Assembly: GCA_910579975.1 (NCBI GenBank)
Contig: CAJTWU010000003.1
Coordinates: forward strand, 30,010 to 94,009
DNA: 64,000 nucleotides
Source: an uncultured Vampirovibrio sp.
Lineage (GTDB): Bacteria > Cyanobacteriota > Vampirovibrionia > Gastranaerophilales > Gastranaerophilaceae
Reading direction: 5' to 3'
This document shows positions 30,399-30,425 of this stretch, piece by piece (position 1 is the stretch's first letter; each line of letters begins with the position of its first letter). The position numbers and the translations under genes were made by a program. The notes beneath the pieces are model-generated. The model worked only from the letters and a program-made list of their open reading frames with translations. It made no database searches and was not told the origin of the DNA.

Positions 30399-30425
30399 TA
30401 AAGTTTTTTTCATTTGTGCCGATAA
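30399..30425 (+). promoter_or_regulatory. sigma-28 (FliA)-type promoter TAAAGTTT-N11-GCCGATAA
   Basis: Perfect match to the enterobacterial FliA consensus. -35 at 30399-30406 and -10 at 30418-30425. About 74 nt upstream of ATG 30500. Confidence 0.8.

Follow-up and report, generated by a model that had tools for sequence, protein, structure and literature searches.

A probable sigma-28-class promoter within a species-specific three-gene insertion in a Gastranaerophilales genome

Introduction

When a stretch of DNA from an uncultured lineage carries a textbook promoter sequence in front of genes that resemble nothing familiar, it has to be asked whether the promoter is real, which sigma factor would read it, and what the genes behind it are for. 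The case considered here is a site at 30399–30425 in a 64,000-nucleotide (nt) stretch of contig CAJTWU010000003.1 (hereafter the window), from an uncultured Vampirovibrio sp. of the Gastranaerophilales. The sequence also forms part of contig CAPSCH010000002.1 in the metagenome-assembled genome GCA_948697725.1, and the species has been assembled from SRR15058525, SRR30634802 and ERR2136552. The site matches the promoter consensus of sigma-28 (FliA), the sigma factor for flagella, and stands before a cassette of three small genes at 30500–31567. From sequence comparison we conclude, with a probability of roughly 0.7, that it is a genuine promoter of the sigma-28 (FliA/WhiG) class in a flagellar-gene-bearing member of Candidatus Gastranaerophilales, and that it drives the cassette as a three-gene operon.

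Much is already understood about promoters of this class in the Proteobacteria, Firmicutes, Chlamydia and Actinomycetota, and the one described here is ordinary in kind and will not surprise a specialist. Its interest comes from the lineage, from the divergence of the candidate sigma factor, and from a regulon of uncharacterised, partly mobile genes that the motif marks. The Melainabacteria are uncultured and common in the guts of animals and of non-industrialised human populations, and among the papers covered by a full-text search, none mentions "Melainabacteria" together with "FliA". Related loci and assemblies are cited below by their L numbers.

An exact sigma-28 motif precedes the cassette

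The + strand at 30399–30425 reads TAAAGTTT ttttcatttgt GCCGATAA, with no mismatch at any of the 16 specified positions of the E. coli sigma-28 consensus, TAAAGTTT-n11-GCCGATAA (PMC2859248). At the base composition of the window (33% G+C), 9.3e-5 exact TAAAGTTT-N11-GCCGATAA matches are expected by chance in 64 kb when both strands are counted, and about 0.003 in a 2-Mb genome. When up to three mismatches are allowed, the window has seven matches where 1.57 are expected, a number reached in none of 100 shuffles. The site is intergenic and oriented toward the cassette, with 74 nt (30426–30499) between the end of the -10 box and ATG 30500, and a consensus scan of the + strand between ileS and the cassette finds no sigma-70-like promoter. 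It is unchanged in four independent assemblies, whose 358-nt intergenic spacer differs only in a (GTATA)n tandem repeat upstream of the -35 box, with six units in assembly L003 as against five. This repeat may be a slipped-strand switch that shifts the context of the promoter by half a helical turn.

A sequence-only reading of the window had described the site as a textbook sigma-28 match at all 16 positions, too improbable to be expected in 64 kb and about 74 nt upstream of ATG 30500, and the measurements above bear it out on each of these points. Its assignment of the site to the sigma-28 type is also supported, as the exact match, the chance value, the intergenic placement, the conservation, the flagellar genes and the sigma factor family all agree on it. 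It held that the open reading frame (ORF) start at GTG 30416 is simply the -10 box in translation; this ORF runs in frame into the gene of ATG 30500, which it lengthens on the upstream side, and public gene calls give the ATG product of 129 amino acids (aa). It reported the same artefact at 3313, and a copy of the motif is indeed present near that position, with TAAAGTTT-N11-GCCGATAT at 3296–3322.

In the fliC promoter of P. aeruginosa, GCCGATAA occupies positions -15 to -8, and the start of transcription predicted in Table 1 follows from the same spacing. The resulting 5' untranslated region of the cassette, of about 67 nt, has no significant fold (z +0.5), and no Rfam family is found anywhere in the window.

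The motif class is conserved in related species

The cassette promoter is one of three strong sites in the window. The other two precede orphan genes (Table 1), and all three are intergenic, co-oriented with the downstream gene, and 28–74 nt from its start codon. There is also a weaker fourth candidate (19.9 bits), TAAAGTTT-N12-ACCGTATA at 44735–44762 on the - strand, in the spacer before a gene of the uracil-DNA-glycosylase family (44679–44023), with a hairpin between the site and the start codon.

A wider sample was obtained by scanning with the IleRS of the window, which gave 80 loci (L015–L094) at 80–95% identity and about 1.1 Mb of DNA; the named taxa among them are nearly all Candidatus Gastranaerophilales, Melainabacteria or Vampirovibrio metagenome-assembled genomes (MAGs) from the gut. 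A relaxed pattern finds 18 sites in these 80 related species, nearly all of them intergenic and correctly oriented, and the class as a whole takes the form TAAAG(T/A)T(T/C)-N11-12-xCCG(T/A)(A/T)A. TAAAG is invariant across 22 related promoters, and the commonest -10 box in the order is GCCGTAA, with the general form GCCG(T>A)(A>T)A. A position weight matrix built from 22 sites of the class has 38 matches, as compared with nine in the reversed sequence.

The sites are also kept in front of particular genes. In one family, all 19 orthologues examined have TAAAG(T/A)T(T/C)-N11/12-xCCGTAxx at 31–89 nt before the start codon, in spacers that are otherwise divergent; these genes lie 3' of ileS in the related species (L049–L091, at about 100–900 nt; for example 9519–11042 in L091). 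The L041 homologue of the 714-aa gene of the window has TAAAGATT-N12-GCCGTAAA at the equivalent place, and the class is found again before a P1-like gene (a homologue of the first cassette gene) in L022 and before a second P1-like gene start in L008. Since the motif is kept before orthologues despite the divergence of the surrounding spacers, we interpret its conservation as the phylogenetic footprint of a working promoter class.

Most promoters of the class have a further element. In 21 of 23 promoters, TGTAA (or TTACA) keeps a fixed distance to TAAAG, -33/-34 nt as counted from its first T, and it often recurs at -23; the background is 12.6% when the box may lie anywhere in a window of 35 nt. 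These boxes, seen as TGTAA(C/A), lie upstream of the sites at 3296 and 23061 in the window and of promoters in L015–L091. The boxes are missing from just two promoters, which are those with a perfect core: the cassette promoter, where the TGTAA position is taken up by G6 and (GTATA)5, and the one before a 504-aa gene in L029. Sigma-28 promoters that depend on an activator are known (PMC2859248), and the TGTAA boxes may be an activator site or an UP-type element, to which a protein or the alpha subunit of RNA polymerase would bind.

Across about 1.2 Mb, every gene that follows a copy of the motif is an orphan and lacks a flagellar domain. The family of the 19 orthologues, whose members begin with MGM(A/S)ASQARLLSITARL, has no member within the window; its proteins are 245–507 aa long, and their middle is hypervariable, whereas the ends are conserved coiled coils. 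This layout resembles that of flagellin. A relationship to flagellin was considered and set aside, as there is no match in Pfam, in NCBIfam or in a profile search of the PDB.

A divergent sigma factor, probably of the FliA/WhiG clade, is encoded in the window

The candidate for the cognate sigma factor is a 212-aa protein encoded at 48749–49387. Pfam recognises only sigma-70 region 4 in it, and the best match of the single sequence in the PDB is WhiG. A profile of 20 members of its family, compared with the PDB sequences, matches Aquifex FliA (1rp3) over its full length (E 2.6e-19, positions 14–220 of 227 in the profile), followed by WhiG (7lq4, E 2.7e-17), E. coli FliA (6pmi, E 1.5e-14), unnamed sigma-factor chains (6pfj and 6pfv, E 3e-13), FliA entries 9wsm and 9wsf (E 2e-12), SigF, in domain 4 only (E 1e-11), and SigA (E 5e-8). 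Seven of the best eight matches are thus FliA, WhiG or unnamed sigma-factor chains. Because FliA and WhiG structures rank first, the protein appears to be a divergent member of the sigma-28 clade, and the suggestion of the sequence-only reading that a sigma factor fit for this promoter is encoded here is strengthened to the extent that the family profile matches FliA/WhiG structures before other sigma classes.

The best 120 of 2,869 homologues of the sigma factor are all at least 80% identical, and among these 120 a single one has a named source, a Melainabacteria-type MAG in which the protein is labelled merely "sigma-70 family". An exhaustive search of 1.84 billion representatives gives just 596 matches at E <=0.001, so that the family is small and distinct. 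For distant full-length relatives, FliA_WhiG is the best specific NCBIfam model in eight of ten cases, covering the whole model in two, with scores of 56–79 bits that lie below the cut-off. An alignment to hidden Markov models, read by eye, shows that the stacking tyrosine (Y76) is retained in the family. The gene divergent from that of the sigma factor was considered as an anti-sigma factor and rejected, as it encodes a signal-peptide protein; neither an RsiG-like nor a FlgM-like anti-sigma factor was found beside the sigma gene.

Flagellar genes are present in the same genome

On the same contig, 7.5 kb past the right end of the window, lie fliE, fliF and a following gene. No sigma-28-type site precedes fliE, which matches the expectation for early flagellar genes. 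These three genes, within 15472–20441 of L013 (a stretch of the same contig, 5.5–10.4 kb beyond the right end), adjoin a CHASE2-GGDEF gene for a synthase of cyclic di-GMP. In another species, represented by L007, the homologue of the cassette itself is 3–5 kb from flgC/fliE and fliI. Members of the Gastranaerophilales are known to have full flagellar gene sets in some cases and a subset in others (PMC4040986); complete sets have been reported for about 25% of the genomes, with a role in secretion suggested for the rest (bioRxiv 10.64898/2026.04.24.720558).

The cassette encodes three proteins that match no known family

The cassette comprises three genes (products P1, P2 and P3) with ribosome-binding sites and short spacers between them, and ends in a hairpin. 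P1 is hydrophilic and of low complexity, with an isoelectric point (pI) of 9.6, a PQ-repeat tail and an amphipathic C-terminal region. Its N-terminus, M-x-x-INPSF, is a case of the motif M-x-x-INP(S/A)F common to P1-like proteins, including that of L022. The (PQ)n at its C-terminus is encoded by a hexamer repeat at 30835–30871. The exact P1 sequence is absent from the protein collection in which P2 and P3 are present, for which variation of repeat length among strains may account. P2 (pI 9.35) has the conserved sequences YNPLG(E/D) and RYG..SW and a C-terminal half that is glycine-rich and moderately hydrophobic; its AlphaFold model from the single sequence is uninformative (predicted local distance difference test score, pLDDT, 42). 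P3 is acidic (pI 4.3) and the best conserved of the three, and its model (pLDDT 79) consists of two helices and a four-stranded sheet.

P1, P2 and P3 have no match in Pfam, NCBIfam, PHROGs or PADLOC, nor do their profiles give a meaningful match to PDB sequences, which agrees with the sequence-only reading that the products are unlike known flagellar or chemotaxis proteins. Comparison of the P3 fold with the PDB by Foldseek gives a best E of 0.2 and no fold match. Three specific identities were considered. P1, a small disordered protein behind a sigma-28 promoter, was rejected as FlgM, since it has no match in Pfam (PF04316 for the FlgM domain) and its profile none among PDB sequences, in both cases at E <=10. 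P3 was considered as FliS, FlgN, FliT or a class I chaperone, with no family match and no chaperone among the top Foldseek matches, and P2–P3 as a known toxin, immunity or defence family, again with no match in Pfam, NCBIfam, PHROGs or PADLOC.

Homologues do exist in other species. L007 and L008 retain the order P1-P2-P3 and the ribosome-binding sites, at about 31% identity for P1, 42% for P2 (also found in L095) and 62% for P3, and a more distant relative has the P2–P3 pair without P1. Other searches are nearly empty: a scan of species-representative genomes with the P3 alignment finds no relative, and a metagenome scan gives one short contig only, which indicates that the cassette is rare and difficult to sample. 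With P2, a word-indexed homology search returns only its own cluster, despite the clear homologues in L007, L008 and L095. In L007 (3870–5124) and L008 (110–860), a spacer of 1.25 kb before the cassette is full of short repeats, such as GTAGGTCGKGGCATTGCCCGAC and runs of CACTAKTCACTA. The second, divergent P1 gene start in L008 has a TAAAGTTT-N11-GCCGTAAA promoter of its own and an identical leader with two CTAATGTAACACAAT repeats.

The sequence-only reading also placed a strong terminator at the end of the cassette. This is right as regards the structure, a perfect 17-bp hairpin (inverted repeat I3) with a free energy (dG) of -23.9 kcal/mol, and less so as regards the T-tail, which is weak, so that a simple terminator scan does not list it.

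The cassette is an insertion limited to this species

The same 80 related loci show what the site looks like without the cassette. In 74 of them ileS is preceded on its own strand by a gene for an SDF-family transporter, with a gap of mostly 11–145 nt, and in the closest relatives the stop codon of the transporter gene overlaps the start codon of ileS. None of the 80 loci has P1, P2 or P3, including three species whose flanking proteins are 94–96% identical to those of the window. Alignment of the junctions shows that 1,460 bp carrying promoter, genes and terminator have replaced the last codons of the transporter gene and parted it from ileS, with neither terminal inverted repeats nor a transposase flanking the insertion. 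The operon is an accessory module, inserted in this species only and composed of genes for two basic, largely unstructured proteins and the acidic alpha/beta protein P3. The insertion appears to be recent.

The junction (30142–31616 in the window, about 5900–6000 in L015–L094) is an insertion hot spot, with inserts that differ by species. In L022 the insert comprises a gene for an XRE-type regulator, and a divergent TAAAGTTT-N11-GCCGTTAA promoter before a P1-like gene of 68 aa and a hairpin. In L031 and L036 it is a gene of 207–215 aa, and in L024 and L025 repeat-rich DNA. Within the insertion of the window, sigma-70-like promoters for ileS are now found at 30266–30313 (-), after which a perfect hairpin of 11 bp at 30217–30242 (dG -18.3 kcal/mol) stands in what is presumably the ileS leader, and a 12-bp perfect inverted repeat, GCAATTGTAAAG/CTTTACAATTGC, spans 30283–30339.

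Further along the window, an (AG)22 tract at 33084–33127 lies just 5' of a 579-aa GT8/GT2 glycosyltransferase gene (33174–34913), which may be a phase-variable gene for surface glycosylation. Two independent assemblies, L002 and L003, break off at the tract or close to it, suggesting that its length is heterogeneous.

Table 1. Positions in the window of the promoter, the cassette and the associated features
Feature	Position	Strand	Remarks
-35 element TAAAGTTT	30399..30406	+	8/8 to sigma-28 consensus, exact
-10 element GCCGATAA, including the extended -10 GC	30418..30425	+	8/8, exact; spacer 11 nt
Predicted transcription start, G	30433	+	Placed by GCCGATAA at -15..-8, the register of the solved sigma-28 open complex
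(GTATA)5.2 tandem repeat after a G6 run	30357-30388 (repeat 30363..30388)	.	Tandem Repeats Finder; ends 10 nt 5' of the -35 box
Ribosome-binding site AGGAG, gene 1	30487..30491	+	8 nt before ATG 30500
Gene 1, P1, 129 aa	30500..30889	+	ORF and gene call
Gene 2, P2, 103 aa	30935..31246	+	ORF
Gene 3, P3, 99 aa	31268..31567	+	ORF
Perfect 17-bp hairpin, likely bidirectional terminator common to the cassette and the convergent transporter gene	31575..31612	.	dG -23.9 kcal/mol, z -8.1
1,460-bp species-specific insertion (promoter, three genes, terminator)	30157..31616	.	Ends from junction alignment
Second promoter TAAAGTTT-N11-GCCGATAT	3296..3322	+	28 nt before orphan gene 3351-3821 (156 aa)
Third promoter TAAAGTTT-N11-GCCGTATA	23035..23061	-	35 nt before orphan gene 22999-20855 (714 aa)
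Probable divergent FliA/WhiG-clade sigma factor, 212 aa, candidate cognate sigma	48749..49387	+	Family profile vs PDB

Reading the promoter and its rivals

Our reading implies the following course of events. RNA polymerase with a divergent sigma-28-family factor, most probably that of 48749–49387, would bind with sigma domain 4 on TAAAGTTT and domains 2 and 3 on GCCGATAA. Transcription would begin near G 30433 and produce a tricistronic transcript over 30500–31567, terminating at the hairpin at 31575–31612.

Several observations weigh against this reading, and most of them concern the sigma factor. On the NCBIfam model FliA_WhiG (TIGR02479) it scores 56.4 bits, over residues 104–201, where the cut-off is 189.6. 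The residues of P. aeruginosa sigma-28 that contact -12 G/-13 C and the -15/-14 bases are R80, D87 and R97, and the aligned positions (from the same by-eye alignment) have Ala, Asn and Tyr. Its gene has a GH57 glycosidase, a secreted protein and gcvPB as neighbours, with no adjoining flagellar genes, and a second, more canonical fliA may exist elsewhere in the genome. As for the promoter, it lacks the TGTAA boxes that 21 of the 23 promoters of the class have, and in L007 and L008 there is no clear sigma-28 motif within 140 nt of the main copy of the cassette. Finally, flagellin, motAB and che genes are missing from the window and from the 10 kb on either side of it.

How far do these observations favour another explanation? 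That the motif is a chance or decayed sequence without promoter function, with the cassette transcribed from elsewhere, is scarcely tenable: the AT-richness of the genome and the 20 occurrences of TAAAGTTT by itself in the window speak for it, but the whole motif is expected far less than once, is intergenic, correctly oriented and without an upstream sigma-70-like alternative, belongs to a class kept in relatives, and is identical in the four assemblies. More weight is due to the view that the promoter class is real while its regulon is largely decoupled from swimming, a divergent sigma-28-clade factor, comparable to Streptomyces WhiG or Chlamydia sigma-28, controlling surface or secreted proteins specific to the lineage, with the cassette as a set of exported effectors and some products perhaps leaving through a flagellar type III apparatus that serves mainly in secretion. 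The orphan genes behind every copy of the motif speak for it, as do the departure of the -10 contact residues from those of canonical FliA, the existence of sigma-28-family factors with non-flagellar regulons (PMC12871210), and the fact that the best 120 sigma homologues are so closely similar while only about a quarter of Gastranaerophilales genomes have the full flagellar set. The presence of fliE and fliF in this genome, and of flgC, fliE and fliI near the cassette in L007, points the other way, and we regard such a decoupling as unlikely, if well worth bearing in mind.

The mobility of the module raises yet another explanation, in which the cassette is a mobile toxin–immunity or bacteriocin-like module, P2 a small peptide, rich in glycine, that acts on membranes and the acidic P3 the partner that gives immunity or neutralises it, and the promoter merely travels along without a functional tie to flagella. 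A species-specific insertion at a junction that holds other inserts elsewhere, the occurrence of P2–P3 without P1, the contrast between a basic, half glycine-rich and moderately hydrophobic P2 and an acidic P3, and the rapid evolution of proteins confined to one lineage speak for such a module. Known bacteriocin, toxin, immunity and defence families are not matched, however; P2 has neither a leader motif nor a true transmembrane segment (maximum Kyte-Doolittle value 1.27), no transporter or processing gene adjoins the cassette, and the fold of P3 is unlike that of any known immunity protein. We therefore find this explanation quite improbable, and retain that of a sigma-28-class promoter driving an accessory operon.

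What the operon does is suggested only weakly. Its products may be made alongside those of late flagellar genes, and could be an exported cargo of the flagellar type III apparatus together with a partner or chaperone, or else a small toxin with its immunity partner. An exported cargo with a partner fits because two of the proteins are basic and unstructured, the remaining one would be an acidic partner, and co-expression with late flagellar genes is presumed; the same features, together with the mobility of the module, make a toxin–immunity pair fit too.

A more general conjecture can be drawn up for the order, and we put it forward as a long shot. In the Gastranaerophilales, a divergent sigma-28-clade factor would act on tripartite promoters (TGTAA boxes, TAAAG and GCCG(T/A)(A/T)A) and control an almost wholly orphan, fast-evolving and partly mobile regulon, including the cassette and the MGM(A/S)ASQARLLSITARL family, whose products would be exported via a flagellar type III apparatus that is often reduced in the order. 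If this were true, what was a flagellar regulon would have become, in gut relatives of the Cyanobacteria, a programme of secretion directed at the host. Independently of the conjecture, the motif is so sharp that the regulon can be read straight off the sequence of MAGs; as far as the sampled DNA goes, its proteins are uncharacterised, and some are mobile or hypervariable. The motif thus offers a cheap route to candidate motility-linked or secreted factors of the lineage, and a handle on whether its often-reduced flagellar apparatus serves secretion.

Comparison with known systems

The promoter comes closest to the late (class 3) flagellar promoters that sigma-28/FliA reads in Enterobacteria and Pseudomonas, with which it shares the -35 and -10 octamers, the spacer, an intergenic site near the start codon, and flagellar genes in the genome. 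It differs from them in its melainabacterial host and in the non-flagellar genes downstream, and the candidate sigma factor differs from FliA in falling far under the family cut-off and in its -10 contact residues. The lineage also departs from this pattern in its usual -10 box, GCCGTAA, and in the extra TGTAA boxes that most of its promoters have upstream of the -35 element, at distances of 23 and 33 nt. For the latter there is a precedent in the aer and trg promoters of E. coli, sigma-28 promoters that are activated by CRP and need the activator bound upstream (PMC2859248). The TGTAA boxes of the Gastranaerophilales may act alike, whereas the cassette promoter is without them.

Members of the sigma-28 clade with diversified or non-flagellar regulons are known from the Actinomycetota (WhiG) and from Chlamydia (PMC12871210, PMC12282069). 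The likeness to the present case lies in a divergent sigma-28-clade factor and in TAAA...GCCGATAA-like promoters before genes unrelated to flagella, if factor and promoter are indeed paired here as we propose; WhiG is, in addition, the best single-sequence match of the sigma factor of the window among known structures. Unlike these systems, the lineage studied here retains flagellar genes, and its sigma gene is not accompanied by an RsiG-like or FlgM-like anti-sigma factor.

With respect to the genes behind the promoter, the nearest parallel is provided by the Feds of Campylobacter jejuni (Barrero-Tobon and Hendrixson 2012; Goon et al. 2006; cited in PMC7887314 and PMC9856085), non-flagellar genes that depend on sigma-28 and are expressed together with flagella, some of whose products are exported via the flagellar apparatus. 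The cassette has no sequence similarity to them and is, unlike them, an apparently recent mobile insertion, and secretion and any part in colonisation are only putative features of its products. Both systems nevertheless present small proteins of unfamiliar fold behind a sigma-28 promoter in a flagellated gut bacterium.

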